This document shows, piece after piece, positions 20,662-63,896 of a stretch of 64,000 bases of DNA. The notes below the pieces were generated by a model, which saw only the letters and a program-made list of their open reading frames with translations, was not told where the DNA came from and did not search any database. Source of the DNA: a virus; IMG/VR virus record IMGVR_UViG_3300005663_000045, positions 4,632 to 68,631 of that record. One strand, written 5' to 3'. Both the position numbers and the translations under genes were made by a program. How positions within the stretch are numbered: position 1 is the first letter of the stretch; each line of letters begins with the position of its first letter.

Positions 20662-20930
20662 GGTGGTTCCTCTTAATCCTGATTCTCCTGACCGGCTGCG
20701 CCAATGGCAAGACGACCTTTCTAGGTGATGGGCCCTTGCGCCTGGAACTAGGGTCGTATCTACCCGACGAGCACAAGGACATTCTCTTAATCGAGGACAC
20801 CGAGAAACGCCTTGAGATGTACAATCTGCACGCGGTCCATTTGGGGTATCCCGTATTCGTCCTGAGCCCGCTCACTATGGAATTCCTCCTGAAGCAAGCG
20901 GAGAAGGCGAGACGGAACAGCGACTTCTAG
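20658..20930 (+). CDS. Small lipoprotein, possible o-spanin
   Basis: Lipobox LILLTGC, coupled to upstream gene. Confidence 0.5.
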   Translation: MRWFLLILILLTGCANGKTTFLGDGPLRLELGSYLPDEHKDILLIEDTEKRLEMYNLHAVHLGYPVFVLSPLTMEFLLKQAEKARRNSDF

Positions 20931-20983
20931 CCCACCCTGAAATTTCATGTTAATCGTTACGAACGGTTAACAACGAAAGAAGC

Positions 20984-21072
20984 GGTAGGTAAAAGGAAGG
21001 GCGCGACGTGCCGTTAGCATCGCGTCCCTTCCGCGTTCTGTGTTCAGGGGATTTACTCCCCTCGTACCTACC
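20984..21072 (-). ncRNA. ~90-nt structured sRNA with its own promoter
   Basis: Starts GGTAGGTA about 6 nt after the -10; ends pair (GGTAGGTA/TACCTACC); two internal hairpins; CCCTTCC followed by a T-run. Confidence 0.6.
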
Positions 21073-21078
21073 ATGATA

Positions 21079-21107
21079 ATTATCGGCGATAGTATTCGAT
21101 TAGGCAA
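21079..21107 (-). promoter_or_regulatory. Promoter for the sRNA
   Basis: TTGCCT-17-GATAAT with upstream T-tract. Confidence 0.6.
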
Positions 21108-21118
21108 GGGAAAAAAGG

Positions 21119-21191
21119 TGCCCCGGCGAGGACTCGAACCCCGAACACGAACTTAGTAGGTACGCGTGATTTCCAATTTCACTACCGGGGC
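21119..21191 (-). tRNA. tRNA with anticodon ACT on a short-variable-loop, Arg(ACG)-like body; no encoded CCA
   Basis: GCCCCGG/CCGGGGC acceptor, GTGA/TCAC D-stem, CGTAC-CTACTAA-GTTCG anticodon arm with one mismatch, CGGGG-TTCGAGT-CCTCG T-arm. Confidence 0.75.
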
Positions 21192-21223
21192 ATATCATCC
21201 AAACTAGGGCCACAGTCTACCAC

Positions 21224-21249
21224 AGCCCCCGCTCAGGCGGGGGTTTTTT
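21224..21249 (+). terminator. Rho-independent terminator ending the late operon
   Basis: CCCCCGC-TCAG-GCGGGGG followed by TTTTTT. Confidence 0.8.
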
Positions 21250-21360
21250 ATGCGCTTTTTGTCACAGGCGTTGTCATAAACGATGCGCGGGCTAAGCCAA
21301 GTCGCTTTCGGGTGTTGCTTTGTTTTGAGGCCCCAAAATCCGATCACTTTTGACCGAATT

Positions 21361-22380
21361 TTAGATCGTTGCCAGGGCTTGCCTGCCCCCATGCTCTACT
21401 GTGAACTGGGCGTAGAACCGCTCTGTCGTCTGAATAGATGAGTGGCGGAGAATCCGCGAGACATCCTCTATCCTTCCCCCCTCCTGGAGAATGAGAGACG
21501 CGATCGTATGCCTGAATATGTGCGTGAGGATCCCCTTGCGGGCGAACTTCGGGAACTGCGGGGCGAGCTGCCTGAAATACTTGTTCCAGTTTCCGCGGGC
21601 GCGCGGGCGGAACACGAACTCATCATCTTCTTTGGGTAGCCCTTTGAGTACTCCAACGAGTTCTGGGTGCATGGGGATAGATTTGTAGCCTCCCTTCACC
21701 TTGGTGGCGCGGACACGAATGGTCGGCTGGTTGCCAAAGCGAAGGTCGCTCCAGCGAAGCCGTTCTAGTTCTCCGAGGCGCAATCCTGTATAGCTGAGGA
21801 CAAGTACCGGGCACAAGTTTCCTTTTCTCGCAAAATTTCTTACCTCCTCCAACTCTTTGCGTGTCAGGTGGATGATCTCCTTGTCCTCGATTTTGGGCCG
21901 CTCGGTTTCCAGAATCGGGTTACTGGACACTTGGTGTGATCGTACAAGCCAGGAGAAAAATCTTCCCAGGTGAGCGTGTTCGGTAACGGCGGCCGCTGGT
22001 GAGAGGCCGGAATCCAAGCGGTGATTCAGGTAAACTTCTATCTTCGCGGCGGTTATTTCGTCAGGCGTCTTGATGTCGTGCATCTTCACAAACGCACGAA
22101 TCGTGGTTAATTTGAAGGCGAGATAGTTCGGTTGGTTTCGGTGTTTCTCATGGGCCCCAAACTGCTCTAACAAGCGATCTATTGGCTCGTTCGAGCCGTT
22201 GCCGTAGACTGCCTCAAGGATTTGTTGCGCCCGATATCCCGCCTCTGTTTTGGTGCCGCAGTGGAGGCTGATCCGCTGCTGTCTTTTGCTCGGGGTCGGG
22301 TGGGAATACCAAAAGATGTCACCCCTTTTGTAGATGGTTCCCTTCTTGACCCACCGCCTGTACCACGCCGTCTTATTCAT
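21361..22380 (-). CDS. int: Tyrosine recombinase/integrase
   Basis: TGLRLGEL (R), K, HIFRH, LRHS...TTERFY catalytic residues; N-terminal arm-binding-like segment; GGAGG RBS. Confidence 0.92.
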   Translation of the reverse strand: MNKTAWYRRWVKKGTIYKRGDIFWYSHPTPSKRQQRISLHCGTKTEAGYRAQQILEAVYGNGSNEPIDRLLEQFGAHEKHRNQPNYLAFKLTTIRAFVKMHDIKTPDEITAAKIEVYLNHRLDSGLSPAAAVTEHAHLGRFFSWLVRSHQVSSNPILETERPKIEDKEIIHLTRKELEEVRNFARKGNLCPVLVLSYTGLRLGELERLRWSDLRFGNQPTIRVRATKVKGGYKSIPMHPELVGVLKGLPKEDDEFVFRPRARGNWNKYFRQLAPQFPKFARKGILTHIFRHTIASLILQEGGRIEDVSRILRHSSIQTTERFYAQFTVEHGGRQALATI

Positions 22381-22399
22381 GGCGACCTCCGAAAACTAT

Positions 22400-22650
22400 A
22401 AGACCGTTGGCACAACGTTTTGCACATTTTAGCATAAACTCCAGCAAAATCAACAAAAGACAGTTTCTCGAACAATGAAAGGCTAGCTAAGTCGTTATGT
22501 CCCGTGAGTGGTGAACTTGCGGGATTTTGTTTGCGCAAGTGGCTGTTAAGGCAAAGAATTAGAACCGCCCATCGGTTCGTGTTGGTTCGTGTTGCGCCGG
22601 ATATCCTGCGCGCAGACTGTCGCTTTGTTACAGTGATTTGGCACAATTAT
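22400..22650. other. Candidate attP region
   Basis: Noncoding gap next to the integrase with repeated TTGGCACAA/TTGCACAT arm-like motifs at ~22408-22430 and ~22638-22646. Confidence 0.35.
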
Positions 22651-22970
22651 GGGGTCTCGCCCTTGTTCGCTTGGCAGATTTTCTTGGTGCAGGCAAGCCC
22701 TCCCGCCAAGAGAAAAACAACCGCCCATTGAAGCAACAGCCGTGTTGTGTCAATTCTCAACGACGTCCTATTCCGCAATCTGTATTGGTATGAATGTCCC
22801 CCGCCTCGGTGATCCCAGCCCCATCCCAGCGGCCCAATCCACAACCAGCCGTACCCGACAGAGTGTCCTGTTTGCCGCTTCCACGGTGGGTAGATAAGCG
22901 TCCCGAGTAACACGCCGATCACGACCCAAACAAAGGCAATCTTCCAGAAACTAGAACTTCTTTGGCCCAT
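22647..22970 (-). CDS. Small two-TM membrane protein in the immunity region (possible superinfection exclusion)
   Basis: Two hydrophobic segments flanking YPPW...GYGWLW; GGGAG RBS. Confidence 0.6.
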   Translation of the reverse strand: MGQRSSSFWKIAFVWVVIGVLLGTLIYPPWKRQTGHSVGYGWLWIGPLGWGWDHRGGGHSYQYRLRNRTSLRIDTTRLLLQWAVVFLLAGGLACTKKICQANKGETP

Positions 22971-23041
22971 AACCCTGCTCCCGTCTTAGATGAACACCTG
23001 ATATAAGAACTGATTATCTCGGGGATTATCGTAGATAATGC

Positions 23042-23069
23042 TTGACTTGGGCATCTGCCCCGGTACAAT
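23042..23069 (+). promoter_or_regulatory. Plus-strand promoter facing the repressor gene
   Basis: TTGACT-16-TACAAT; a second TTGACA at ~23143. Confidence 0.5.
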
Positions 23070-23315
23070 AAAGATACAGCAGCCGCACTGAGAGGTGCTG
23101 ATTCTTTCGACAGCGATCTGAGAATTCTTTTTTTGCATAGCCCTTGACAGTATACCTAACAGCAGCCTAATATACAGCTAGGGAGGATCGACCGATGCGA
23201 GCTGGTGTGAGTGCGCGAGCAAGCGGGCCAGGAACTCGGTACCTGGTAAAAGCATTTCGCAAGCAAATCAACCTCCTGTCCCCAGGGGGCCGAGAGAGGT
23301 ATCTGGCCTTTCTTC

Positions 23316-23684
23316 TTACTCAATTCGATGACGCTGCCGTTCCTGTTCAACAAGTTCAGCCAACTTTGCGATCTCCCGAAGCCGTAGATGGTCAGGGAGC
23401 TGCCGCAGATACTCAGTTCCCTTTGCGGTAATAGCCTCTTCCGCAGGCAGGAATATTTCTGTGGTCATTAATTCGGTGTCTGGGATTTCCAGTACCTCCG
23501 CCAATCTGAAAATGCGTGAACCTCGGGGGATTCGTTCCCCACGCTCGTAGCGCGATATTTGAGTGTGCTGATCAGTCCTGAGACCGATAGCAACAGCGAT
23601 TTCTTGCTGCGTCATGCCACGGCGGTTTCGCCATTCTTTCAGTTTCGCTGGATCAAATACGCTCATGCCTTGCATTGTATCCAA
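23316..23684 (-). CDS. XRE/Cro-CI family HTH repressor
   Basis: LKEWRNRRGMTQQEIA...QISRYERGERIP...RLAEVLEI; divergent from the early operon. Confidence 0.88.
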   Translation of the reverse strand: MDTMQGMSVFDPAKLKEWRNRRGMTQQEIAVAIGLRTDQHTQISRYERGERIPRGSRIFRLAEVLEIPDTELMTTEIFLPAEEAITAKGTEYLRQLPDHLRLREIAKLAELVEQERQRHRIE

Positions 23685-23785
23685 TTTAGCCTCGCGTAAA
23701 CTTTTTTTATCCCCCTAAGTCCAATTTCTTGCTCGGATTAGGCCAGTAAAGTCCACGGTGCGGCCTAGAAACGATACAAAAAGAC

Positions 23786-23814
23786 TTGATATCTGGTCTA
23801 GTCCTGCCGATAAT
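23786..23814 (+). promoter_or_regulatory. Early lytic promoter (PR-like)
   Basis: TTGATA-17-GATAAT, divergent from the repressor, followed by AAGGAG and ATG 23840. Confidence 0.7.
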
Positions 23815-23920
23815 GTCTCATGTAAGGAGCTAACAAGCAATGACTGGCACGCTAGCCAAATCAGTTCTCTGTAGAAGCGAAAGCCGGGACGAACCTGCGG
23901 GCCGGGCCGGTTTCTACTAT

Positions 23921-23977
23921 GGAGGGTCCGAAGGCGAGGCTAGCGTGCCGATAGCTGACGGGCCCTCCTTCTTTTTT
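23921..23977 (+). terminator. Leader terminator/attenuator of the early operon
   Basis: GGAGGGTCCG/CGGGCCCTCC stem followed by TTCTTTTTT; loop region complementary to 23846-23857. Confidence 0.7.
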
Positions 23978-24113
23978 GATGGGTCGAGCATGGACGGGAC
24001 GAGAACGCAAGGATGCGTGGGGGCGGTCAATAATCACTCCTATCCTCTCTTTGGCCGCCTTGCCGGAACAACCCCTCCTCCATTAACGACAAGATATTCT
24101 AGCAGGGGAGCGA

Positions 24114-24314
24114 ATGATGTCCAAGGAAAAACCAAAGGAAAAGATGCTGATGAACCAGAAGGAGGCCGTCGCCTTCTTGGGCATAGGGCGGACGGAGTTT
24201 TGGGAGGGCATCTATCCAATATTCAGGGACAAGAAACTGTGGCCGCCCATGTTCAAGCGGAAATACTATCCTCGCGATGTTCTCTTGGAGGTCATTCGCG
24301 GGGAGTGGAACTGA
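24114..24314 (+). CDS. Excisionase/AlpA-like HTH protein
   Basis: LMNQKEAVAFLGIGRTEFW motif; GGGGAG RBS. Confidence 0.7.
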   Translation: MMSKEKPKEKMLMNQKEAVAFLGIGRTEFWEGIYPIFRDKKLWPPMFKRKYYPRDVLLEVIRGEWN

Positions 24315-24389
24315 CGAGACTCCTATCTGTAGATGCAACGGTGAAGGGTGCGCCCCTGCTTTGTGGCGGGGGCGCATTGTTTTTCTCTG

Positions 24390-24722
24390 ATGGGCGAAAC
24401 GATGGAACGAAACGCACGGACGCGGAAGTCCATTCGGGAATACTTGAAGATCGAGACTGCTCCTTTTTGTTCGGCTTGCGGGCGAGAAGTGGAAGCCTGT
24501 TCCCGGAGCAGCAAGGCCGTCGTCTGCTTTCGGTGCACGGCGATTGCAGTCTCCACCCCGAGGAAGCCGGTCACCAATACCCGGAAGTGTCCCGACTGCG
24601 AAGGCCCCCTCGGTCCTCGATGCCGGTTTTGCCCGGAATGCGCTACAAAACGCCGCCGAACTGCCCAAAGAAGGGCGACACAAAGAAATCGAACTACGCT
24701 TTCTGGTGCTGTCAACAGTTAA
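24390..24722 (+). CDS. Zn-finger protein (four CxxC)
   Basis: CSAC, CFRC, CPDC, CPEC; start codon uncertain. Confidence 0.55.
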   Translation: MGETMERNARTRKSIREYLKIETAPFCSACGREVEACSRSSKAVVCFRCTAIAVSTPRKPVTNTRKCPDCEGPLGPRCRFCPECATKRRRTAQRRATQRNRTTLSGAVNS

Positions 24723-24820
24723 GCGGTTTTGACATGCAGCAAACCCCTATAAACAGGCTTGCCTATCTTAACACAAACACAAGGCCGACCCGTAGGGCCT
24801 CGGCGCAGTTAACTGTTGAC
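24711..24820. repeat. 110-bp element with 12-bp terminal inverted repeats, copy 1
   Basis: GTCAACAGTTAA...TTAACTGTTGAC; homologous to 52744-52851. Confidence 0.85.
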
Positions 24821-24876
24821 AAGGCGATCCTGGGGCATCCTGGCGCGTTTGTCAACCAACGAGAGGCGAGGATCTG

Positions 24877-25083
24877 ATGCTAACTAGACAAGAGTACAAA
24901 ATTCTCCGGCTCGTCCTTTTTGGGTACGAACAACAGGAAGTCGCTAAGCGCCTAAGTCTCAACACGGCCACTGTAAGCCGGAGTCTTGATTCGGTGGAGA
25001 GGAAGAATCCGCTCTTGGGGTGTGCTTTAGGGGTAATCAAGAAAGTACACCATCAACAACAATTAGCGGAGGCCGTCGCATGA
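24877..25083 (+). CDS. LuxR/sigma70-region-4-type HTH protein
   Basis: LTRQEYKILRL...GYEQQEVAKRLSLNTATVSR. Confidence 0.7.
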   Translation: MLTRQEYKILRLVLFGYEQQEVAKRLSLNTATVSRSLDSVERKNPLLGCALGVIKKVHHQQQLAEAVA

Positions 25084-29696: not shown

Positions 29697-30266
29697 CCCC
29701 GCAGATCATGGTAGCTGCACTTGAGGACTGAACCAATGGCGAAAGCAAAGACAGTACCAACGAAACCGGAGTGGGCAGAGGCAGCAGCAGCATTAAAGGA
29801 AGCTGTCAAAGAAAAGGAAATAGACGCAGAAGCGGAATGGGTACTTTGTGGAAGTACAACCATTCGTGTTACTGATGGGTATCTTGAAATTTGCGATACG
29901 CTAACTGGTGAAGAATGCCGCGAACTCCGCGACATACTCAACTCCATGTATCCCAAGGATAAGGACTGAAACGATGAAAAAAATTACAGTAGTAAAAGCC
30001 AATGTTGCAAAACCAGTTCTTAAGATTAAGGCACTTACTGTCTATGAGATCTACGAGGAAAGTACTGGAGATTGGTTCTGCTATGGGCAGGAATACTCTT
30101 TGGCAAAGGCAAGGAGCGTAGCTAAGAGACTTGATGGCCCTACTGTTATTGTCAGTGCACATCTTCCAGCAGTAGAGATGTAACCAACACCCCAGCCCCC
30201 GCTGATGGTGGGCCTGTCTGCCTGTTCGGTAGGCTGAAGCTATTGAGTATAACTGAATATGGATAC

Positions 30267-31023
30267 ATGCTGGCGGGCGGCTCTAACTGGCATAGCTACC
30301 AGGTATCCGGGTTGGCGCGAACCGGCAGGCAGTGTCCGCTGGCCGTCAGTGCCCAGCACTGCTGCTGACCCCGCCGGCATTGATACAAGGACTCGTCTGC
30401 GGCGTGGTGTGAACACGCTCGAAGTGGGACAGGCCCAATACAGTGTTCGGTTCCCGCTCCGACGCTTGGGCATAGCAGGCAGCGGGTAATGGCCAATCCT
30501 GCCGGGCGAGTCCTTTTGAATGAATGGCCTCCTTATCCCGCGAAGTTCCAGCAATGCGGGCTCTGGTGGAAATAGGGAATGGCTGAAGGCAGCACAACCA
30601 ACCCGCATGGGATGTTGTTCTGATTGTGGCGATAGCCATAACCAACTTCAGCATTCGGAGGCCCCGGTACTACTGGCGGTGCTTTGTTGGGAATGCCCGG
30701 CGAGGAAGTAGCTACCACGCCAGTATAGGGTACGGGTGAGTAGGAATCTGACGCCGTGCGCAACGGTTGAACGAAAGCCCGTACCCGAACGATTATTTCT
30801 CCCCGTGCTGCATAGCCGTCATCGAATGGGCGGAACCTCGGGCCATTGGCGGTAACGCGCGATTTAGTACCTGGTCCGTCGCGCCGGGTGGGTGAAGCCC
30901 GGCCACGGGGAGCATATGCGGCGGTGGGCGACGAGCGAAAAGCCCTCTAGCTAGTTAGGCCGACTACTGGTTGGAGTCAGGAGTAACGTGCCTGAATGTA
31001 AGGTGCAAATCCTTCCCGTCGCA
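30267..31023 (+). ncRNA. Array of six closed-stem structured RNAs, at least two tRNA-like
   Basis: Closing stems at 30267/30380, 30387/30515, 30526/30663, 30728/30786, 30799/30912, 30918/31023; no credible CDS in ~850 bp. Confidence 0.6.
30918..31023 (+). ncRNA. tRNA-like RNA with 11-bp extended anticodon stem and long variable arm
   Basis: GCGGCGG/CCGTCGC acceptor plus A; GGC/GCC D-arm; CTCTAGCTAGT/ACTGGTTGGAG; TCAGG/CCTGA; AAGG-TGCAAAT-CCTT T-arm. Confidence 0.6.
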
Positions 31024-31058
31024 ATGAGTTTGGAACACTAACTTTAAGGAGATGTGAA

Positions 31059-31691
31059 ATGAACAAGGATTTGACAGACATTACATTGGTTGTGGACCGA
31101 AGTGGGTCTATGCAGTCCTGTTTAACTGAAGCACAAGGCGGGATCAATGCTTTCATTTCAGAGCAGAAAGAGGTTCCAGGCGAAGCGTTGCTGACCATTC
31201 TGGAATTCGATACCGCCTACGATTTCGTTTGTAGTGGGACGCCCATCAAGGATACTCCCGAATACAAGCTCGTTCCTCGTGGTATGACTGCGCTTCTAGA
31301 TGCGGTGGGTCGGGCAATCAATGAGACTGGAGAACGGCTTGGCAGAATGGACGACGAATCCCGTCCCGGGCTGGTCGTCATAGCAATCATCACAGACGGT
31401 CACGAGAATGCCAGCCATGAATTCACAAAGCAGCAAGTCAAGGTAATGGTGGATCGGCAAACCAACGATTACCAGTGGAAGTTTGTATTCCTTGGCGCAG
31501 ATGCGGGAGCGTTTGATGAAGCTGCTTCAATCGGAATCCATGCTGGAAGCACTGTAATGTATGCTCCAGACAAGAGCGATAAAGTATACGCTGCAACCTC
31601 TGCGAATGTCTCTATGGCCCGATGCGATATGGCGGCTGGAAGAACGGTGTGTATGGATTGGAGCGACGAGCAACGAGCAGAAGTTAAGTAA
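31059..31691 (+). CDS. vWA-domain protein
   Basis: VVDRSGSM MIDAS, PRGMTALLDA, IITDGHENAS, W.FVFLGA. Confidence 0.88.
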   Translation: MNKDLTDITLVVDRSGSMQSCLTEAQGGINAFISEQKEVPGEALLTILEFDTAYDFVCSGTPIKDTPEYKLVPRGMTALLDAVGRAINETGERLGRMDDESRPGLVVIAIITDGHENASHEFTKQQVKVMVDRQTNDYQWKFVFLGADAGAFDEAASIGIHAGSTVMYAPDKSDKVYAATSANVSMARCDMAAGRTVCMDWSDEQRAEVK

Positions 31692-47435: not shown

Positions 47436-47715
47436 CAAGATGGAACAGGTTAAAGATGTAGATTTGGCGGAGTTGGTGGATTCCTCGGAAGGCGAGATCT
47501 TTGCCGAGAAGCAGCGGTCTGTAGCTGGCTTGGTCAAGAAGCTGCTGCAAAGGCAGGAGATCCTGGCCAAGGAAGTCATGGCCGCCGAGAAGTCCTTGGC
47601 GAAGAAAAAAGAAGGGCTTTTCAAGGTCGAAGTCAAGATCACGAAGCTGCGAGACGGCGACTGGTCCGTGCTTCAAGAGGACAAGCCCCAGGGCCAGCAA
47701 GAGAACTGACAACAT

Positions 47716-47876
47716 CGCGGCGTGGCGTAAACGGACAACGCCTGCCGAACTTTCCTGGTTGAGTAGGCCCCAAGCTGAACGACGCTGCGTAGTAACCCCT
47801 CTTCCGGGCGAAGCCAGCAGGATACGCGGGAAATGTGTTTCGGCAAGGATTGCGGGTTCGAGTCCCGCCGCCGCGA
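47716..47876 (+). ncRNA. tRNA-bodied RNA with a 93-nt insert replacing the anticodon loop
   Basis: CGCGGCG/CGCCGCG acceptor, U8, GCGT/ACGC D-stem with GG, TGCCG/CGGCA stem, GCGGG-TTCGAGT-CCCGC T-arm. Confidence 0.75.
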
Positions 47877-48284
47877 GTGAAAGGAGCATGAGATGAAGCA
47901 TGATTTCGAGATAACACATACGATGGCAACAAGGACGCTAGAGGGCTCTGCACCACATAGTTATTGGGGGCTTATGCACCGCGAAGCGGAGGGGGTCTGT
48001 AGGCGGTGCGGCGTGCGTGTGTGTGTCTCTAGCGACGGGATGACTGATGGTTTGGCTGAGGAAGAACTTCGGAAGGTATTTAGGCAGACAAATTGTAAGC
48101 CAAGAGGTTTTTGGCGGCGGTTGTGCTTTTGGGCAGGAGAATGAGATGAAAGAATCTAATGGGATTGACCTATTTGACGAAAAATACCGTATTCGTTTCC
48201 AATTGACTTGGGGGGCAATGATCTACTTCATGACGCCCCGGATTGACGGCCCGTACACGCTCATCAAGATGTAGGAGAATAAGT

Positions 48285-52743: not shown

Positions 52744-52851
52744 GTCAACAGTTAACCGATTCTAGGGCCACAAAACCCCTGCAAACAGGCTTACCTATTT
52801 TAACATTCAGGTGAGGGCGGGTCTTACCCCTTATTCAAAGTTAACTGTTAG
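52744..52851. repeat. 110-bp inverted-repeat element, copy 2
   Basis: GTCAACAGTTAAC...AAACCCCT..AAACAGGCTT.CCTAT.TTAACA...GTTAACTGTTA, colinear with 24711-24820. Confidence 0.85.
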
Positions 52852-55868: not shown

Positions 55869-56282
55869 ATGAATGTGGATACAAGAATACGCGATTTACA
55901 GGACTCCGTACCGCGAGAGGATGCTGAGGCGGTTCTTGAACCGGTAGTCGGGCCGCATGGCAGCGAATGGTTCGGCGACCGGCAGCATTACAGGGCGGAT
56001 TGCCAACAACTCCAGAAGGCCATCAAGGACCGCTGGCCAATGGAGACCGATTTTCGCCATCGGTTGCTCGATAGGTTGATGCTGATGGTTGAGAACTCCG
56101 ATAAGGAACGGCACATCTTGAGCGCTGCCCGGGCCTTGGCCAGTTTGGACAGAGACAATGTGGCGGCTAAGACTGGTGGCGGGAATGCTTCAGCAACTGC
56201 GGCCGTCCAGGTGAACGTAAACACGGGCAATGTAATTGACGACCTGCACGAGCGGATTGATGCGAGCAAGACACCGGGATGA
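55869..56282 (+). CDS. Probable terminase small subunit
   Basis: 137-aa helical ORF coupled directly to TerL. Confidence 0.5.
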   Translation: MNVDTRIRDLQDSVPREDAEAVLEPVVGPHGSEWFGDRQHYRADCQQLQKAIKDRWPMETDFRHRLLDRLMLMVENSDKERHILSAARALASLDRDNVAAKTGGGNASATAAVQVNVNTGNVIDDLHERIDASKTPG

Positions 56283-58102
56283 GTGAGACCCTCACAGTTA
56301 CCCCCGCCCTCAAAGAATACGAACCCCAGGCATGGCAGTTCGTGCACGATACCGCTGATTGGTTCGCCCAGAATCTAAAAATTGTTGATCGGGACAATCA
56401 ACTCATACCCCTCGTAGTCAATCAGCAGCAGATTCAAGTCCTGTTCTGGGTGGGTATGCAGTTCGCCGCGGGTGTTCCTGTAAGAATCATCATCCTCAAG
56501 GCTCGACGCATGGGGATGAGCACACTTATCACCGCACTTCTTTTCATGTTTGCGACCTTGTGGCCGAACTACCCTGTCTTTGCCTGTGCTCACGATCAGG
56601 ATGGAACGAACACTTTGCGCAGCATGGCGCAAAAGTTCCAAGAGGAACTTCCCGAACACCTGAAACGCGAGACGGCCTTTGACAGCAGGCAGGATATTGT
56701 CTTCAAGCCACCGCACAGGTCCAGCTACAACTTCCACACCGCAGGGGGCAAAAAAGGTGTCGGGCGCACCAAAGAAATCACCGGCCTTCACGCCTCTGAA
56801 AAGGCCCACATAGACAGCGGCGACAAGTTTAACGCCTCGGTAATGGCTGCCGTCCCCCGACAGAACCCCCGGTCGTGCATCTTCCAGGAATCCACAGCCA
56901 ATGGTGAGGCTGATCCGGGCAAGTTTCATGCGGCGTGGGTTGGCGCTGTTCAGCAGCGAAAAGATTCCTCTGATAACGTGCAGGGCTACTTGCCCTTGTT
57001 CTTCTCATGGTTGGACTTTCCCGACTACAGACAGGCACCATTGCCTAATTACACTTGGGGGGAGTTGACCGAGAAGGAACTGTGGCTCAAGGGTCTTGGT
57101 GCCGACGAAGAGCAATTGTACTTCCGGCGATGCGTGATAGCCGAGGACTACAGCGGGGACGCCGACATATTTTCTCAGGAATTCCCGGCGACTGCCAAAG
57201 AAGCCTTCCTCGCATCTGGCCGACCTGCAATACCAGCGTCTGTCATATCTTACCACGAAAGTCTCGCCCGACCTCCGGCAAGGAAGGTGCACCTGCACTG
57301 GGATGGCAAGGGTGAAGTGCTTGCCGTAGATGCTCCCGAAGGCGCGATGGAGTATTGGGAAGTATGGTACGAGCCTATGGGGGTTGGCGAGGCGGACTAC
57401 ATTGTCGCCGGCGACGTAGCCGAGGGGAAACTGTCCGATCCGGCTAACGACAAGAGCAAGCCCGACCGACATGGGGGTGCAGTTCTCAACCGGAGATACT
57501 TCCGCATTGATGCAATCTGGTCCGGTTTTCGGATGGGGGCGGACGTATTCGGACAGGAACTTCGCAAGTGTGCGGAGTGGTACAACCAGGCATGGGCGTC
57601 CCCCGAAGCAAACGCTGCGGGGCAGGCCGCCTTGGTCCCGTTCAAAGACTATGCCCGGATATTCCAGCGGAGACCTTCTGAGCCTGTTGGTGTAGAGGAA
57701 AAGGAACTTCCCTCGATAGGCTGGAAGACCACCACGGCCAACCGGGACTACATGATAGATATGTACAACGCCGCATGTTCTGTGTCTGAGGAAGTTCGGC
57801 GGAAAGCGGGCTTCGGCGATCGCCTCCAAATCTTCTCCGACAAGGTAGTGGTGCAGGAGAAGGCGTTCGTTTGGAAGAAGAGCGGCAAGAGAGAACATCA
57901 AGCGGGGGAGTTTGACGACCTGTTATTCGCTTTGTTTGTCGCCTTGCAACTGCACATGACTTGCCCTCGGACATTGGAATCGCAGGAATGGAAGACGCAA
58001 CGGAAGCGTTTGGGCTCGCAATGGTCTGGCGGTTTTGCAGGACCGGAGGATGACGATGAGGACGACGAGCCAGTCACTTGGGATAACGTAACTACATCGT
58101 AA
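56279..58102 (+). CDS. terL: Terminase large subunit
   Basis: LKARRMGMST, LHASE, ESTANG, QEFP..AF..SG, GDVAEG, DDLLFA. Confidence 0.92.
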   Translation: MSETLTVTPALKEYEPQAWQFVHDTADWFAQNLKIVDRDNQLIPLVVNQQQIQVLFWVGMQFAAGVPVRIIILKARRMGMSTLITALLFMFATLWPNYPVFACAHDQDGTNTLRSMAQKFQEELPEHLKRETAFDSRQDIVFKPPHRSSYNFHTAGGKKGVGRTKEITGLHASEKAHIDSGDKFNASVMAAVPRQNPRSCIFQESTANGEADPGKFHAAWVGAVQQRKDSSDNVQGYLPLFFSWLDFPDYRQAPLPNYTWGELTEKELWLKGLGADEEQLYFRRCVIAEDYSGDADIFSQEFPATAKEAFLASGRPAIPASVISYHESLARPPARKVHLHWDGKGEVLAVDAPEGAMEYWEVWYEPMGVGEADYIVAGDVAEGKLSDPANDKSKPDRHGGAVLNRRYFRIDAIWSGFRMGADVFGQELRKCAEWYNQAWASPEANAAGQAALVPFKDYARIFQRRPSEPVGVEEKELPSIGWKTTTANRDYMIDMYNAACSVSEEVRRKAGFGDRLQIFSDKVVVQEKAFVWKKSGKREHQAGEFDDLLFALFVALQLHMTCPRTLESQEWKTQRKRLGSQWSGGFAGPEDDDEDDEPVTWDNVTTS

Positions 58103-58282
58103 GGAGTAACTGGGATGAGATACAAGCTAAGCTGTGACGGGGTTGGCCTATTAAAGAGGATTGGCCCGGACTGGTCGAAGGATTTTTATCACATTCACTC
58201 CGACGAAATGACTTTACTGGAGCGTTTGTGGCATTGCGCATTGCGAGTCATGTCCGCGAAGAACTAAGAAGGAGTAACCGGG

Positions 58283-58618
58283 ATGCCACTTGTACTTACA
58301 GAATCTGAGCAAATTCTACCGATGGGCCCGCATGTATTGATTCGCAGGGTTGACGTTGAGGAAACCACGGAAGGCGGGATTGTCCTCCCCGACATTGCCA
58401 AGCAGAGGCCGTTTCGTGGAACGGTTGTCAAAGTAGGCCAGGGTAGGTTGCCTGAGAAGTGGACTTGGGATGGCGAGAACATGCCGGACATGGTTCCTCT
58501 TAGCGTGGCGATTGGCGACGACGTTATTTTCAAGGCGTACGTCGGTACGGAAATACGAATTGACGACGAGGATTACCTTCTCGTTGACGAAGCGGACATT
58601 TACGCGGTTATTGAATAA
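58283..58618 (+). CDS. groES: Co-chaperonin GroES (Cpn10)
   Basis: P.G..VLIR...EETTEGGIVLPD.AK..P..G.VV.VG.G...V..GD.V.F..Y.GTE...D...YLL..E.DI.AV. Confidence 0.92.
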   Translation: MPLVLTESEQILPMGPHVLIRRVDVEETTEGGIVLPDIAKQRPFRGTVVKVGQGRLPEKWTWDGENMPDMVPLSVAIGDDVIFKAYVGTEIRIDDEDYLLVDEADIYAVIE

Positions 58619-59272
58619 AGGAAACCGGGATGGCAGATCCAAAAACAGTGAATTTCCAAAAGACAACGCGGAGACTTTGCGGGACGTGCAAGTACCTTAT
58701 TGCCAAAGGTGGCGCGAAGTGTGCATGTCAGCATCCGGCGAACTTCCCAATGACGCACGAGATCCCCCCAGTGTCCATCTTTGATTCCTGCGAGGATCAC
58801 CGATTCCGGGGTGAGGAATGAGTGGAAAATGGGGAATCGGGAGTTACGACACAACGATAGACCGCATTCACACATCTTGGGACGAAGCGACAAAGGTTTT
58901 CACGTTCGAGTGGGACCTCTCGCAAGACCAAGAGAAGCCCCACACTCATTACGAGAAGGAGATGTTGGGCCTCCAACGCTTCATGTGGGGTCATATGTGT
59001 AGTGTCGCGTGCAGTACGATCAAAGAGGCTAGTTGGTGGTCTAATGCACCGTACAGAATGGCGGGTGGAGCATGATTACTGAAGGGATGTTGATTGGTGC
59101 CGCTCTTATCGCAATGGCGATGGTCGGCGCTGGGGTCATTATAGGCTTCTTGATTGGCGTGCGTGTTACTGCGCGCCTTGCTGGACGTGACGAACCAATA
59201 CTTTTCGACAAGCCGGGAATGGACATTGAAGACGAGGACGTGGACGATCTTGAAACTACGTGAGGATAAAAC

Positions 59273-61231
59273 GTGGCTGTAGTAACAGGGGAGAAGCTCA
59301 AATCTCTGAATTCCCAGCTTGACGATTGGCGCACAGCGTGTCTCGACGAGACTGACGGCTGGTTGCAAATCTATCGTGACGGCCTGAATTACGCATTCAA
59401 CAACCAACTCGCCAATAAGAAACTCAAGGACGGATGGGACCCGATAACCGCCAACTACATCTTCCCCGCGATGATGCAGGAATTGGCGATTCTTTCCCAG
59501 CGATACACTACCGTTCTCGCCCGCCCCACAGAAGATTCCGACAGCCAATACGCCGATATGTGGCAGTCGCACTTGCAGTGGCTTTACGAAGAAGACCTCA
59601 ATATGGAGGAGTTCCTTCTTCGGGCAGCCCTGGACGCGAAGATAGCCGGGTACTCTGTCGCAAAGACCCTGTGGGAACCCGAGCCCCGTAACGGATGGGA
59701 TATCCAGAACAAGCGATGGATTGGCAGATTGCGGTGCGCTCTTATAAGGCCGGAGTATTTCGGGTCCGATCCGGAGGCGGAGACACTCGACGAAGCGTCG
59801 TATATCTTCACCGCGCGCAGGGCGCACAAGGAATGGGTGAAGCGGAGGTGGCCGGGGCATGATGAGGAAATAGACGCCGCGGCTAACGAAGATGATGCCT
59901 GGAACGATAGAACCCAGCGTATTTACGACACGATAGTCATTACGGACAAACCGGACATTGGACCGAACGAAGGGGATCAGGCACGGCTGGTTAGTTTGCT
60001 GACTGGGGTGAAAACTGCCCGGCTCAACGACGATGCTAGAGAAGGTCAGTATGTAACCATCGAGGAGTTCCACTACCAGGATTACGAGACACGCAATGGA
60101 GAAACGCGCGGGGATGATATTCCCGAAGAGGAGTTGATTCAGAAGGGTTTGGCGTTTCGGGAGGGAACCATTCTCCGAAGCAATGAGACTGGCGTGGCAC
60201 TAGGGCCAAATAACTGGCCCACAAAAGACGGATTGACGTACAAGGAACCCATGTACCCAAGGGGGAGAATGATACTTCGGATTGGGGAAACGCTTCTTAA
60301 TCCCGACACCAAGGACCAGATTTACCCTTATGAAAGACAACCGTTTGTTATCGGGGTAAATCATCTGTTGCCCCATACGTGGAGGGGGCTCAACAACGTC
60401 GAGATGGCGCGTGGTCTTCAGGATTGGGTGAACATATCGATTCAGCATCTTGGGGCTGCCGTTAAGCATTTCGGGGATCCCCAATGGGTTGTGGAGGAAG
60501 GCGCTGTCGAGGGGGCGAAGACGCCCCGGAAGTTGGCACAGCGAATCAAATCCGCTGCCGGGAAGATTATCTTTGTCAGTAAGGGAAAGATAGACAAAAT
60601 ACGCCGCGAACCTGCACCCGCACTAAGCACGGGCGTAATAAGCACCTTCACTTTGATGGCGCAGGAACTCCGTGACCAGACGGGCATACAAGAAGTCGGA
60701 CTGGGTCGCGCCCAAGAAGGCCAACAGACCAAGCATGAGATAGTTCGTCTGGAAACGAACACCCGGTTACGAACAGCGCTATCGCATAAACTCCTGGACC
60801 AGTTCCTCGTCAGGTTGTGGCGGAACATTGCAGAGTTGGCCCAGCGGAATTATGAACCCGAACGGGTCTTGAGAGTCATAGGCAAGCGGCATGCCCCGAC
60901 GATTACGGAATACAATCAGGGGATGGCGGACGTTCGCTTTGACATACAGATAGAGGCGGGGACGAAACTGCCCTTTGACGTCGAGAAGAAGCGGATGAAT
61001 CTCACGGAAGCGATGGGAATCCTCGGCCCCCTGCCAACCTTGGTCGAGCGATACCTGGAGGCATCTGAGATTATGAATCCCGAAGAGGTTATCGCCGAAT
61101 GGCAACAAATGCAGCTTCAACTCCAGCAACAAGCACAACAACAGGAAGCAGAAGGGACGCCAAATGCCGGAACAAAAACGAACACTCCAAGCGGCGGCAA
61201 TACAAACACCAACACAACCGAGGGTGCTTAG
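59273..61231 (+). CDS. Portal protein (P22-like)
   Basis: 652 aa between TerL and scaffold; NYIFP, P.EDSD, LQD.VN, TGI...LG, Gln-rich C-terminus. Confidence 0.8.
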   Translation: MAVVTGEKLKSLNSQLDDWRTACLDETDGWLQIYRDGLNYAFNNQLANKKLKDGWDPITANYIFPAMMQELAILSQRYTTVLARPTEDSDSQYADMWQSHLQWLYEEDLNMEEFLLRAALDAKIAGYSVAKTLWEPEPRNGWDIQNKRWIGRLRCALIRPEYFGSDPEAETLDEASYIFTARRAHKEWVKRRWPGHDEEIDAAANEDDAWNDRTQRIYDTIVITDKPDIGPNEGDQARLVSLLTGVKTARLNDDAREGQYVTIEEFHYQDYETRNGETRGDDIPEEELIQKGLAFREGTILRSNETGVALGPNNWPTKDGLTYKEPMYPRGRMILRIGETLLNPDTKDQIYPYERQPFVIGVNHLLPHTWRGLNNVEMARGLQDWVNISIQHLGAAVKHFGDPQWVVEEGAVEGAKTPRKLAQRIKSAAGKIIFVSKGKIDKIRREPAPALSTGVISTFTLMAQELRDQTGIQEVGLGRAQEGQQTKHEIVRLETNTRLRTALSHKLLDQFLVRLWRNIAELAQRNYEPERVLRVIGKRHAPTITEYNQGMADVRFDIQIEAGTKLPFDVEKKRMNLTEAMGILGPLPTLVERYLEASEIMNPEEVIAEWQQMQLQLQQQAQQQEAEGTPNAGTKTNTPSGGNTNTNTTEGA

Positions 61232-61932
61232 GCCGGGCGACAAACAGTTCTTCAACGCGGACACGAACGAGACGGCCACAATCAAGGAACTGTACTCTAC
61301 TAGGTCCAGCACGCTCCACGTAGTCCTTGAGGATGGCGCGGAGGTCATATTCGTCGGGCACCCAATGACACTTTATCCCGAACCACCCCCGATTAAGATA
61401 GCGGAGGAAGACGATGCCACAGTCATTCCTGACGTGCAAAAAAAACGGCGGAAGAATACGAACCAAAACCCTTAAAGGTGGCAAGTTCATGCACATTTGC
61501 TTCCTTGATGGGAAATCCTACGCCGGGGAAGTCAAAACGAAGAAACACACTAAAGGTTCTGTGTTGATGAGCAAGTAAGGAGAGCGGCATGTCACCAAGG
61601 GTTTCTCAAACTGCGGAAGATTGGAAGTACAAGGTCAAGGATGCCGCTCGGACATTGCGCGAAGCGCAAGAACTAAAGGCGGACACGAAACTCTACAAGG
61701 CCGCGATCGCCGAACTGAAGAAAGAACAAAAGGCCATTGGCGTTGCTTTGAAAGCGAACCGTCAAGGTCGAGCGTTGATGTCGAAATAAGAACTCCCGGT
61801 CATCGTGACCGGATTCCTGCTGAAAGCAGCCAATAGGACGATGTGCCGAAAGGCCAGCCTAAGCGGATAGTAGTGACCCTCCCAAATTCCACAGATCGGA
61901 CAAAAGCGCCCTCTGTGCGCAAAGGAGACGAA

Positions 61933-62790
61933 ATGAGTGAAGCGGAAGCTGGAAACCTCCAGGCTGGTGTAACGGATGAAGATGATACGGAAGATGTTCC
62001 TGTGGAGCCCCTAGAGGGCGAGCAGGGGCCGGAACTCATCACCGATAAGCCTGAAGAGGAAACGAAGGAAGAGCCGGAAAAGAAAGAGCCCGACACGTCG
62101 CAATGGGACCAAGAGCGACAGGAGCGGGACCAGCGGTATGCCACGGAGCGAAAAGAACTGACCTCGCAAATCGAAGCATTGCAGGAACAAGCGGCTTCGT
62201 CAGGCGAGGCGCTTCAGGAACTCCGGGCAACCAAAGAGGCTGCCGAGAAGCCCAAGGATGAAGGCTCCGCACTGGATGCGGATGCCGACATCGACGACAT
62301 CGTGAAGGCCCTCAATGAGACGAAGGCTTTTGGCCAAGAAGCAAGCCAGGAGATTGCGTCTCTCAGAAAGGAACTCGCGGATCGTGACGCCAAGCAGGCT
62401 GAACGCGACGAAAAGAGCGCGGCGGTCAACGCTAAGGCGGCTTACGAATCTACGGTTCGTTCGCTTGAGGAACAGTTTTCCGACGAGCCTCTGGGTATCG
62501 ACGGCGCGAAGTACAGCGCCGAGGCTCAGAAGCGGGCGCAGCAGTTCTTCACCGACAAGGGGTACACGAAAGAGGACCCCCCTTCCGACGTGGCTTCAGA
62601 CTTGGCGCTAAAGGACTTCTTCCGAGAAGTAAGGGATGAAGACCCGACTTACCAACCCAAGCCACGAGCCAAACTCACCGTAACACTCGACACCGGGACA
62701 GGTGGTGGCAAAACATCGACATCACGACGGCCTATGAACCATGAGGATTTCAAGGCCCACAGGCGCAAACAGGGTAGGCCTGTAGATTAG
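61933..62790 (+). CDS. Capsid scaffolding protein
   Basis: Acidic N-terminus, coiled coil, directly upstream of MCP; AAGGAG RBS. Confidence 0.7.
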   Translation: MSEAEAGNLQAGVTDEDDTEDVPVEPLEGEQGPELITDKPEEETKEEPEKKEPDTSQWDQERQERDQRYATERKELTSQIEALQEQAASSGEALQELRATKEAAEKPKDEGSALDADADIDDIVKALNETKAFGQEASQEIASLRKELADRDAKQAERDEKSAAVNAKAAYESTVRSLEEQFSDEPLGIDGAKYSAEAQKRAQQFFTDKGYTKEDPPSDVASDLALKDFFREVRDEDPTYQPKPRAKLTVTLDTGTGGGKTSTSRRPMNHEDFKAHRRKQGRPVD

Positions 62791-62891
62791 GCCCTAAAGC
62801 GCAGAAACCATGTTCCGGGGGCGATTGTTGCCCACGCTTATCGAGTCATTGATAAGTCTGCGCACAATCCCCGGGAAACGGAGAGTTAATT

Positions 62892-63896
62892 ATGGCTTCT
62901 ACAGCAAACATCATTTCTACCACAAAAGACTGGTGGAATAGCACAGTTCAAGAGGAGGGCTGGATGACTATCCTCCTCACGAACATGCTGATTTCACGAA
63001 ATCAGGTCAAGTTCAAGGCTGGCAAGGCGTATAAGCTGGTTGTTCAGACCGGCTCGCTTGAGGATCTCGCCCAGTCATACGGCGACAACACCCCCCTGAG
63101 TTCTGGCGTGAACCAGCTTGCGATCAATCCGCAGTGGACCCGTAAGCGAGTCCAGATCCCCGTCAAGATTCTCGAATCTGAACGGGAGGAACAGTCTGGC
63201 GGAGGTGACGCGGTTGTCGTCTCTTACCCTGAAATGCTGGTTAAGAACGGCCAGGATTCCATGCGGCAGAAGCTCAACAGCATGATTTACGGTGCTGGCT
63301 CTGATACCGCCGTGACCTTCCAGGGTCTTCTTTCCGCACTGAACCACGATGCGACGTACGGTACGTATGCGCGGGCTACCACGGCCACGAATGAGAAGTG
63401 GCAGGGCGCATCCCTGGGCAAGAGTTTCACGGACCAGGACACCGCGGTAGCTGCGAATCTGTATTACGTCCGCCAGTCTGTTGATGCTATTGGGCGGTAC
63501 AACAGCCCGAAGCCAGGCGATCTCGCGGGCATTACGTCCAACGAGGTCTTCCGTTCACTCCAGAGTCAGGTTGACCCCAACCAGCCGACACCTTCGGGCA
63601 ACATAGCGAGATACGGTTTCCGGTCGTTGTTTATCGACGGCGTGGAGATCATCGCTGACCCGTACCTGTCGCACAACTCTGACAACTCGACCACGAAGAC
63701 GTATTTCTTCATGCTGCACATGCCGGACTGGAAGTTGATTCTTTCTTCAAGACTGCGCTTGGGCTACATGACGGACTTCTTCGACCAGTCGAGGATCAAC
63801 AACGGTCTGCCTGAAGACTTGGCGCGGATCAAACTCGCCGGGAATCTCGTCTGCCAGGCTCCGAACCGGAGCATCTGGCTTTCCGCCATGAGCTAA
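62892..63896 (+). CDS. Major capsid protein
   Basis: 334 aa after scaffold; FQGL, GFRSLFIDGVEIIADP, GNLVC..PNR pattern of HK97-fold phage capsids. Confidence 0.8.
   Translation: MASTANIISTTKDWWNSTVQEEGWMTILLTNMLISRNQVKFKAGKAYKLVVQTGSLEDLAQSYGDNTPLSSGVNQLAINPQWTRKRVQIPVKILESEREEQSGGGDAVVVSYPEMLVKNGQDSMRQKLNSMIYGAGSDTAVTFQGLLSALNHDATYGTYARATTATNEKWQGASLGKSFTDQDTAVAANLYYVRQSVDAIGRYNSPKPGDLAGITSNEVFRSLQSQVDPNQPTPSGNIARYGFRSLFIDGVEIIADPYLSHNSDNSTTKTYFFMLHMPDWKLILSSRLRLGYMTDFFDQSRINNGLPEDLARIKLAGNLVCQAPNRSIWLSAMS

Follow-up and report, generated by a model that had tools for sequence, protein, structure and literature searches.

The window analysed here, the 64,000 nucleotides (nt) from base 4632 to base 68631 of a single 68,631-base virus record (IMG/VR IMGVR_UViG_3300005663_000045), covers most of the 68.6-kb genome of a temperate phage. 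Since genes for an integrase, an HTH_3 repressor, a terminase, a portal and a major head protein are all present, the gene content is, as read from the sequence, that of a temperate tailed phage. The metagenome runs that carry the window are from marine sediment, three of the four rows possibly being the record's own source, and no RNA run is listed as carrying it. Around the integrase gene (int), the late genes come to an end and are followed by a structured element, a transfer RNA (tRNA) gene, a plus-strand terminator, int itself, one unassigned open reading frame, the repressor gene and a divergent promoter-like site; beyond the latter lie a leader with a terminator, a gene for a protein of 66 amino acids (aa), a second strong terminator and further small early genes (Table 1). 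The original prediction had tied the leader, the element and the tRNA into one RNA cascade. With moderate confidence, we believe instead that the leader is an ordinary cis-acting attenuator, that the tRNA and the element form a separate accessory cassette and that the complementarities linking them are coincidental.

The terminator of the leader, T1, lies about 110 nt past the -10 element of the early promoter candidate, and its hairpin (23921-23968) is worth -32.2 kcal/mol on its own. As the original prediction had noted, the segment GGCACGCTAGCC at 23846-23857 is the exact reverse complement of 23938-23949, within that hairpin. In folds of the growing transcript, 23846-57 is engaged only within a 4-bp hairpin until 23938 has been transcribed; once 23950 has been transcribed, the 12-13 bp helix 23845-57:23938-50 belongs to the minimum-energy structure. 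In the same antiterminator fold, the extended central hairpin (23866-70:23921-25) captures the first five bases of the 5' strand of T1, and AAGGAGC at 23825-31 pairs with 23961-66 in its 3' strand to form the outermost helix. The two conformers are nearly isoenergetic, at -62.2 kcal/mol for the terminator (transcript ending at 23977) and -61.5 and -64.6 kcal/mol for the antiterminator (ending at 23968 and 23985). Thus a G+C-rich hairpin with a U-run shortly past the promoter is accompanied by a mutually exclusive fold of similar stability that is specific to the native upstream sequence, as would be expected of an attenuator.

That specificity is seen in several controls. Perfect inverted repeats of at least 12 nt within 200 nt number five in the genome, the leader pair being one of them, compared with 0.7 +/- 0.9 expected from 100 Markov-2 simulated genomes. 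When T1 was held fixed and the upstream 100 nt were dinucleotide-shuffled (n = 300), the probability of the terminator stem, taken over its ten basal pairs, averaged 0.969, against 0.034 for the native sequence; only 2 of the 300 shuffles gave a value as low, and in 97% of them at least 8 of the 10 pairs were kept in the minimum-energy fold. In their native surroundings, all of the other strict terminator-like hairpins of the genome (4/4) stay above a probability of 0.9. The terminator came back when either strand of the competing helix was masked: its probability rose to 0.998 when 23846-57 was masked, to 0.997 when a ribosome footprint (23825-58) was masked and to 0.95 when 23944-23955 was masked in silico, whereas masking AAGGAG alone gave just 0.20. 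All these probabilities are equilibrium calculations. Given the shuffle control, the behaviour of the other terminators and the masking results, we accept that the leader is, in the folding model, a specific bistable element; on this modelling, all of the intrinsic tests applied bear out the cis attenuator. In this respect the original prediction stands, since folds, shuffles and masking all identify the segment it had placed in codons 3-6 of a leader frame as a specific competitor of the terminator.

Table 1. Features of the window named in the text, with positions counted from its first base (., no strand assigned)
Feature	Positions	Strand	Basis or remark
Late genes, end	20930	+	
Variable cassette (tRNA and structured element)	20943-21221	.	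39 other letters instead in one contig of run X4
Three-way structured element, 89 nt, the proposed small RNA	20984-21072	-	directly 3' of the tRNA
Promoter-like site TTGCCT-17-GATAAT, in the tRNA-element spacer	21079-21107	-	9/12, consensus only
tRNA, anticodon ACU	21117-21191	-	ARAGORN; Rfam tRNA 52.9 bits (gathering score 29); then six T
Intrinsic terminator between cassette and int	21224-21245	+	9-bp stem, 7 G-C pairs, T-run
Tyrosine integrase (int)	21361-22380	-	PF00589 2.3e-14; phrog_1 2.9e-50
cI-like HTH_3 repressor	23316-23684	-	PF01381 1.7e-12; repressor PHROGs
Operator-like palindrome AGACTTGATATCTGGTCT	23782-23799	.	overlaps the -35 of the early promoter
Early (PR-like) promoter candidate TTGATA-17-GATAAT	23786-23814	+	10/12, consensus match only
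AAGGAG (23825-23830) and ATG (23840)	23825-23842	+	possible ribosome-binding site
Antiterminator 5' strand	23845-23857	+	12-nt perfect inverted repeat; 13-bp helix in the minimum-energy fold
Central hairpin	23866-23925	+	extended form pairs 23866-77:23914-25
Intrinsic terminator T1	23921-23977	+	10-bp basal stem 23921-30:23959-68, one G-U pair, then TTCTTTTTT
Antiterminator 3' strand, the apical part of the terminator hairpin	23938-23950	+	repeat, stepwise folds, masking
Promoter-like site TGGACA-16-TAGAAT with TG, facing the early promoter	24096-24123	-	10/12, consensus only
First credible early gene, 66 aa	24114-24314	+	0.31 bits/codon
Second strong intrinsic terminator, directly after the first early gene	24347-24378	+	14-bp stem, T-run; P 0.987 in context
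Large terminase, portal and major head protein	56279-63896		Pfam/PHROG matches

We propose the following model. The early operon would open with a leader of about 150 nt that acts as a conditional terminator in cis. In the nascent RNA, 23845-23857 would pair with 23938-23950, aided by the extended central hairpin and by AAGGAG:CUCCUU, and this competing pairing would block T1, so that read-through would be the default. Anything occupying the 5' strand would allow the terminator to form, and the likeliest occupant would be a ribosome on the start region formed by AAGGAG and the ATG at 23840. Some 2.8 kb away, beside the integrase gene, the accessory cassette would comprise the tRNA(ACU) gene and then a structured trailer, whose last hairpin (P3) and UUUU would most simply serve as the terminator of the cassette. 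What the computations show directly is that the leader is bistable and that pairings in trans have neither energetic nor statistical support; what triggers the switch, in which direction it controls and what the trailer does are our inferences.

The leader had originally been described as carrying a reading frame with a strong AAGGAG ribosome-binding site. AAGGAG and an ATG are indeed there, but the frame is neither a short peptide nor one with a clear coding signal. It stays open for 345 codons (23840-24877), overlaps two credible genes out of frame, scores 0.07 bits/codon (true frames, 0.27 +/- 0.12; off frames, -0.37 +/- 0.19), and has no family match in Pfam or PHROG. Nor does it resemble a leader peptide of the trp type, as there is no stop before the terminator and no codon run in its first 46 codons. 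Several other long shadow frames occur in the genome.

The early promoter candidate, recovered by a consensus scan as first predicted, diverges from the repressor gene. The palindrome AGACTTGATATCTGGTCT that overlaps it is a putative repressor site; it is the sole exact copy in the window, and at up to three mismatches there are 5 matches compared with 1.9 expected. About 280 bp away, a promoter-like site on the minus strand faces the early promoter; RNA started there would cover the entire leader in antisense and continue into the repressor gene. This layout recalls lambda PRE and the face-to-face promoters of 186 and P2. To judge from the sequence, the leader switch would be triggered in trans more naturally by a cis-encoded antisense RNA from this site than by the distant element.

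Turning to the cassette, the tRNA folds as a cloverleaf in which the T-loop is conserved, the D-loop has a GG and the anticodon loop is 7 nt long; its variable loop is short, and the anticodon stem contains a U-U mismatch. ARAGORN labels it Ser (ACT), yet it has no long variable arm. It carries C35, U36 and A20 (the A after the D-loop GG), which we take to be arginine identity elements, and might carry Arg to the serine codon AGU. The element downstream is a three-way junction of the stem P1 (GGUAGGUA/UACCUACC), a 6-bp hairpin P2 and a 12-bp bulged hairpin P3 followed by UUUU; the stem that joins its two ends, of 8-9 bp (GGTAGGTA/TACCTACC), was missing from the original description. The minus strand folds at -46.2 kcal/mol with a z-score of -6.2 and the plus strand with a z-score of -4.9. 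Every stem pair (~26) is Watson-Crick whichever strand is read, so that the functional strand cannot be told from the fold. In Rfam at E<=10 no family was matched in 20984-21072 or in the leader, the remaining matches being the tRNA and sub-threshold chance matches; in this the element differs from what would be expected of a known antisense immunity RNA such as P4 CI or P1 C4.

The promoter proposed for the element as a separate small RNA (sRNA), at 21107-21079 on the minus strand, was recovered by the consensus scan. Its -10 hexamer lies within the palindrome GATAATTATC, which also yields a promoter-like site on the plus strand (21052-21080, 9/12). The plus-strand site points through the tRNA in antisense to the terminator at 21224-21245, and an anti-tRNA RNA of ~165 nt is possible; the anti-tRNA strand would be covered by late-operon transcripts too.

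The cassette appears to be variable. X4, a run that belongs to another study, has one contig in which 20942 is connected to 21222 by 39 other letters, at a depth of 2.8 (side 30); about 18 of these letters resemble 20947-20966 by eye. Another X4 contig is identical over 20909-21251 and has the cassette unchanged. The contigs end in a pattern such as an assembly-graph bubble would produce. The X4 bins over 23212-23913 are nearly without cover, a hole that we did not use as evidence. A variant of the same phage thus seems to lack the tRNA and the element together, and given a contig without both, the two look accessory.

Beyond the cis pairing, the original prediction rested on two complementarities; both exist, and all of the strings that it cites occur at the coordinates given. 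On the minus strand, 11 of the 12 positions of 21018-21007 (GCTAACGGCACG) complement 23944-23955, and all 9 of the tRNA segment 21164-21156 (CGTACCTAC) complement 21071-21063. Both were chosen post hoc among many possible pairs. Besides its own locus, ~23 loci in the genome reach at least 11/12 complementarity to some 12-mer of the 89-nt RNA, which in 68.6 kb means that a given window of 165 nt would be matched about 3% of the time; for two RNAs of 75 and 89 nt, simple arithmetic puts the chance of a 9/9 match at about 2%.

Energetically, neither pairing is favoured. The duplex between sRNA and leader is worth -17.3 kcal/mol, but 5.2 is spent on opening the sRNA site and 15.0 on opening that of the leader, which leaves +2.9 kcal/mol net; against the isolated terminator hairpin the net is +0.8, and for the 7-nt loop core of the match the two values are +2.5 and +0.4. 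The cis helix (-24.9 kcal/mol) is stronger than the trans duplex and has already formed when the target emerges. The plain duplex energy is equalled by 41% of 1712 genome windows. When accessibility was included, 65%, 45% and 100% of 150 genome windows were as good (L = 8, 10 and 12, respectively), and the best site predicted by the accessibility-aware search differs from the proposed one. Between tRNA and sRNA, the net after opening costs is +1.1 kcal/mol and 53% and 48% of 150 decoys are as good; the tRNA segment belongs for the most part to the anticodon stem, as its 5' strand. RNAcofold, named as a check in the original prediction, gave no intermolecular pairs for either combination (ddG 0.0). 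Given that the net energies are positive, that co-folding is null and that decoys do equally well, the computations lend no support to an sRNA that competes with the cis pairing to set termination, nor to its gating by the tRNA, and the complementarity to the leader is neither beyond chance nor energetically favourable, as an antisense immunity RNA would require. Masking 23944-23955 flips the leader to the terminator, so the sRNA idea is mechanically coherent, though unsupported. Moreover, GGA(A)GGG ... CGTGCCG(T/A)TAGC ... CCCT(T)CC is the plus-strand sequence of both hairpins, and because of this likeness the 11/12 match can be read as similarity rather than complementarity. The local alignment of the hairpins is equalled by 43 of 2000 shuffles in the same orientation versus 271 of 2000 in the opposite one. 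Both links are probably coincidences of short G+C-rich hairpin sequences.

Several observations weigh against our reading. For the leader, the fold as a whole has a z-score of -1.95, with 5 of 200 shuffles folding equally well; since the antiterminator helix takes the apical part of the terminator and not its basal stem, kinetics could differ from the equilibrium result; and since the frame at ATG 23840 has no stop before the terminator, unlike classical leader peptides, the ribosome is an uncertain trigger. Among the collections searched, no relative with a conserved leader or cassette was found. For the cassette, the variant without it is seen in a single contig of low depth. As for the links, the pairing segment of the sRNA sits in an apical loop that faces the apical loop of the terminator, and nearest-neighbour models treat loop-loop kissing poorly. 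The likeness of the flanking stems, pointed out in the original prediction, is borne out, as stems of the form GGA(A)GGG...CCCT(T)CC occur at just these two loci of the genome. Of the six copies of GTAGGTA in the window, three fall within 20985-21162, one in the tRNA and two as both strands of stem P1. Finally, a 221-nt co-transcript of tRNA and element folds at -80.5 kcal/mol (z-score -3.8) with the tRNA arm paired to the element and the tRNA 5' region paired to the element's 3' end, instead of a cloverleaf. Given this fold and the clustering of GTAGGTA, the complementarity of tRNA and element may not be pure chance; we give the fold little weight because predicted tRNA folds often miss the cloverleaf.

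Other comparisons within the genome were negative. The 9-mers that the cassette has in common with the rest of the genome number 160, compared with 142 expected, and a copy of GGTAGGTAC at 51571 was discarded as chance, as it lies inside a coding frame. No long motif in common with 20984-21072 was seen when the non-coding stretches 30240-31060 and 47690-47900 were read by sequence, with the exception of a T-loop, TTCGAGTCC, at 47854-47865.

Of the alternatives, the best placed is that T1 is a plain terminator passed by processive antitermination, as in lambda N/tR1 or HK022 put, the 12-nt repeat being non-regulatory. Since a second strong terminator follows directly on the first early gene, the early operon does seem to need some way through, and the modest z-score of the whole leader fits this account. 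We nevertheless consider it unlikely, because only 2 of the 300 shuffled upstream sequences reach the native level of suppression and because perfect inverted repeats this long are 7-fold above expectation. The layout is otherwise familiar: lambda PR-cro-tR1 with N, HK022 put and the face-to-face promoters of 186 and P2 provide counterparts to the divergent repressor and early promoter, to the early terminators and possibly to the facing promoter at 24123-24096. In contrast to lambda and HK022, no N, Q or put homologue was identified here and the leader has no Rfam match; in contrast to lambda PR-cro-tR1, the terminator precedes the first gene.

Our reading of T1 as an attenuator places it beside the bacterial attenuators, namely those of the leader-peptide type such as trp and pyrBI and the expression platforms of riboswitches. 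The leader resembles these in its promoter-proximal intrinsic terminator with a mutually exclusive upstream helix, one strand of which lies at the start of a translatable frame, so that the position of a ribosome could set the outcome. It differs from them in that this frame runs on without a stop before the terminator or a regulatory codon run, and in that the competing helix takes the apex and a few basal pairs of the terminator rather than a whole strand of its stem.

For the cassette, the main alternative is that the tRNA is the phage attachment site and that the element is a device like lambda tI/sib, the site of int retroregulation, downstream of int. In such a scheme P3 and UUUU would end normal int/tRNA transcripts, read-through would add the 3' strand of P1 and with it a processing mark, and the GTAGGTA copies might be integrase sites. 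The order int, tRNA, hairpin with UUUU and P1 3' strand fits, as an extension that can form only in read-through transcripts does; the integrase is a tyrosine recombinase, half of the window's GTAGGTA copies fall within 180 bp, and the Watson-Crick pairing throughout the stems makes the element strand-symmetric. Unlike in lambda, a whole tRNA intervenes. We regard this alternative as quite unlikely. Int is found 5' of a complete tRNA, an arrangement unusual for integration at a tRNA site; the 25-nt 3' end of the tRNA has no exact match in 185,579 species genomes, among which the host may be unsampled; and the variant contig drops the whole cassette while keeping both flanks. The 17-nt D-arm gave 111 stretches, and the 80 compared had only short matches of up to 23 nt. 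Another candidate site lies upstream of int, where a hairpin GAACCG-CCCAT-CGGTTC (22562-22578) is followed by GGTTCGTGTT twice in tandem; this region (22562-22593) is a possible attachment site or integrase-binding region. The 9-mer GTTCGTGTT has just four copies in the genome, all within 21144-22593 and one of them in the tRNA.

It is improbable that the element RNA, made from its own promoter or as the trailer of a tRNA precursor, kisses the early leader in the manner of P4 CI, with no gating by the tRNA. In favour of such pairing, the 11/12 match has a 7-nt G+C-rich core in two apical loops, a match at this very place has a chance of about 3%, the two hairpins share their stem architecture, and masking the site flips the leader to the terminator. 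Against it stand the same energies and decoys as were given above, the equally good reading of the match as plus-strand similarity and the dispensability of the element in one variant contig. A passage of PMC4825925 describes P4 CI RNA as processed from an untranslated leader and pairing with the flanking seqA and seqC to cause premature termination. The present leader is likewise a phage early leader on which an antisense RNA could promote premature termination, but the candidate RNA is encoded 2.8 kb away on the other strand, has a single 11/12 match that brings no gain in energy, and coexists with a protein repressor.

A related idea, that the cassette is a movable regulatory module whose released trailer would kiss the leader loop and add a layer of RNA immunity in cassette-bearing variants only, strikes us as highly improbable. 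Two folds would be open to its precursor in the model, one giving a tRNA and a closed three-way RNA, the other a hybrid whose anticodon arm captures the 5' end of the trailer. A precedent for a pairing trailer is found in the excerpted part of PMC6191717, in which the glyW-cysT-leuZ 3' external transcribed spacer in E. coli pairs with RyhB and sponges small RNAs. Like that spacer, the element is a structured RNA that includes a terminator directly 3' of a tRNA gene, with base-pairing to a small RNA proposed; unlike there, it is the tRNA body that was proposed to pair with a trailer-encoded RNA, and this pairing does not rise above decoys.

Lastly, we give almost no credence to the three-tier cascade, in which a minus-strand sRNA displaces the cis helix and forces termination of lytic transcription while the anticodon arm of tRNA(ACU) gates the sRNA: all three complementarities exist, the sRNA site lies in an apical loop with a promoter-like site just upstream, masking its target restores the terminator and the co-transcript fold uses the tRNA-element pairing, but the net interaction energies are at least zero, co-folding finds no pairs, decoys do as well, the stronger cis helix is present before the target emerges, the tRNA segment is largely buried in the anticodon stem, a protein repressor with an operator-like site would already cover the promoter, and a contig exists without tRNA and sRNA.

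Searches for relatives bear on both the leader and the cassette. With blastn, 20900-24200 had no match among 50,697 phage records. For the integrase, a first search of IMG/VR returned none and an alignment-based search two loci at 23-27% identity, while its alignment to metagenome contigs gave 46 loci with a best identity of 29%, too divergent for a comparison of non-coding sequence. One integrase relative reaches 41% identity (P0002, on a 22.6-kb contig), and an identical copy of the integrase stands on a 69.5-kb contig. The repressor search returned 17 loci at 28-44% identity over the HTH part only, again too divergent for non-coding comparison, and the portal search had no pattern match. 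A 17-nt piece of the leader and another of a hairpin gave two matches each, all chance, with at most 22 nt in common.

Elsewhere in the window, the inverted-repeat elements at 24710-24821 and 52744-52851, folded as possible repeats of the leader design, showed little RNA structure (z-scores -0.45 and -0.73). The 66-aa early gene has no match in Pfam or PHROG. Near the repressor gene, two strong plus-strand promoter-like sites at 23042-23069 and 23144-23173 (both matching at 10/12) lie ahead of AGGGAGGA and of a frame of 78 codons (23195-23431), which converges on the 3' end of the repressor gene, overlaps it and has a coding score of 0.01 bits/codon.

As this phage shows, short G+C-rich hairpin complementarities can add up to a cascade that looks attractive yet finds no support in statistics or energetics. 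In a small way, the variable tRNA cassette points to how tRNA genes are gained and lost by phages. If the leader works as computed, this uncultivated phage of marine sediment, which is without close relatives in the collections searched, would possess a clean, self-contained terminator/antiterminator switch at the control point between lysis and lysogeny.

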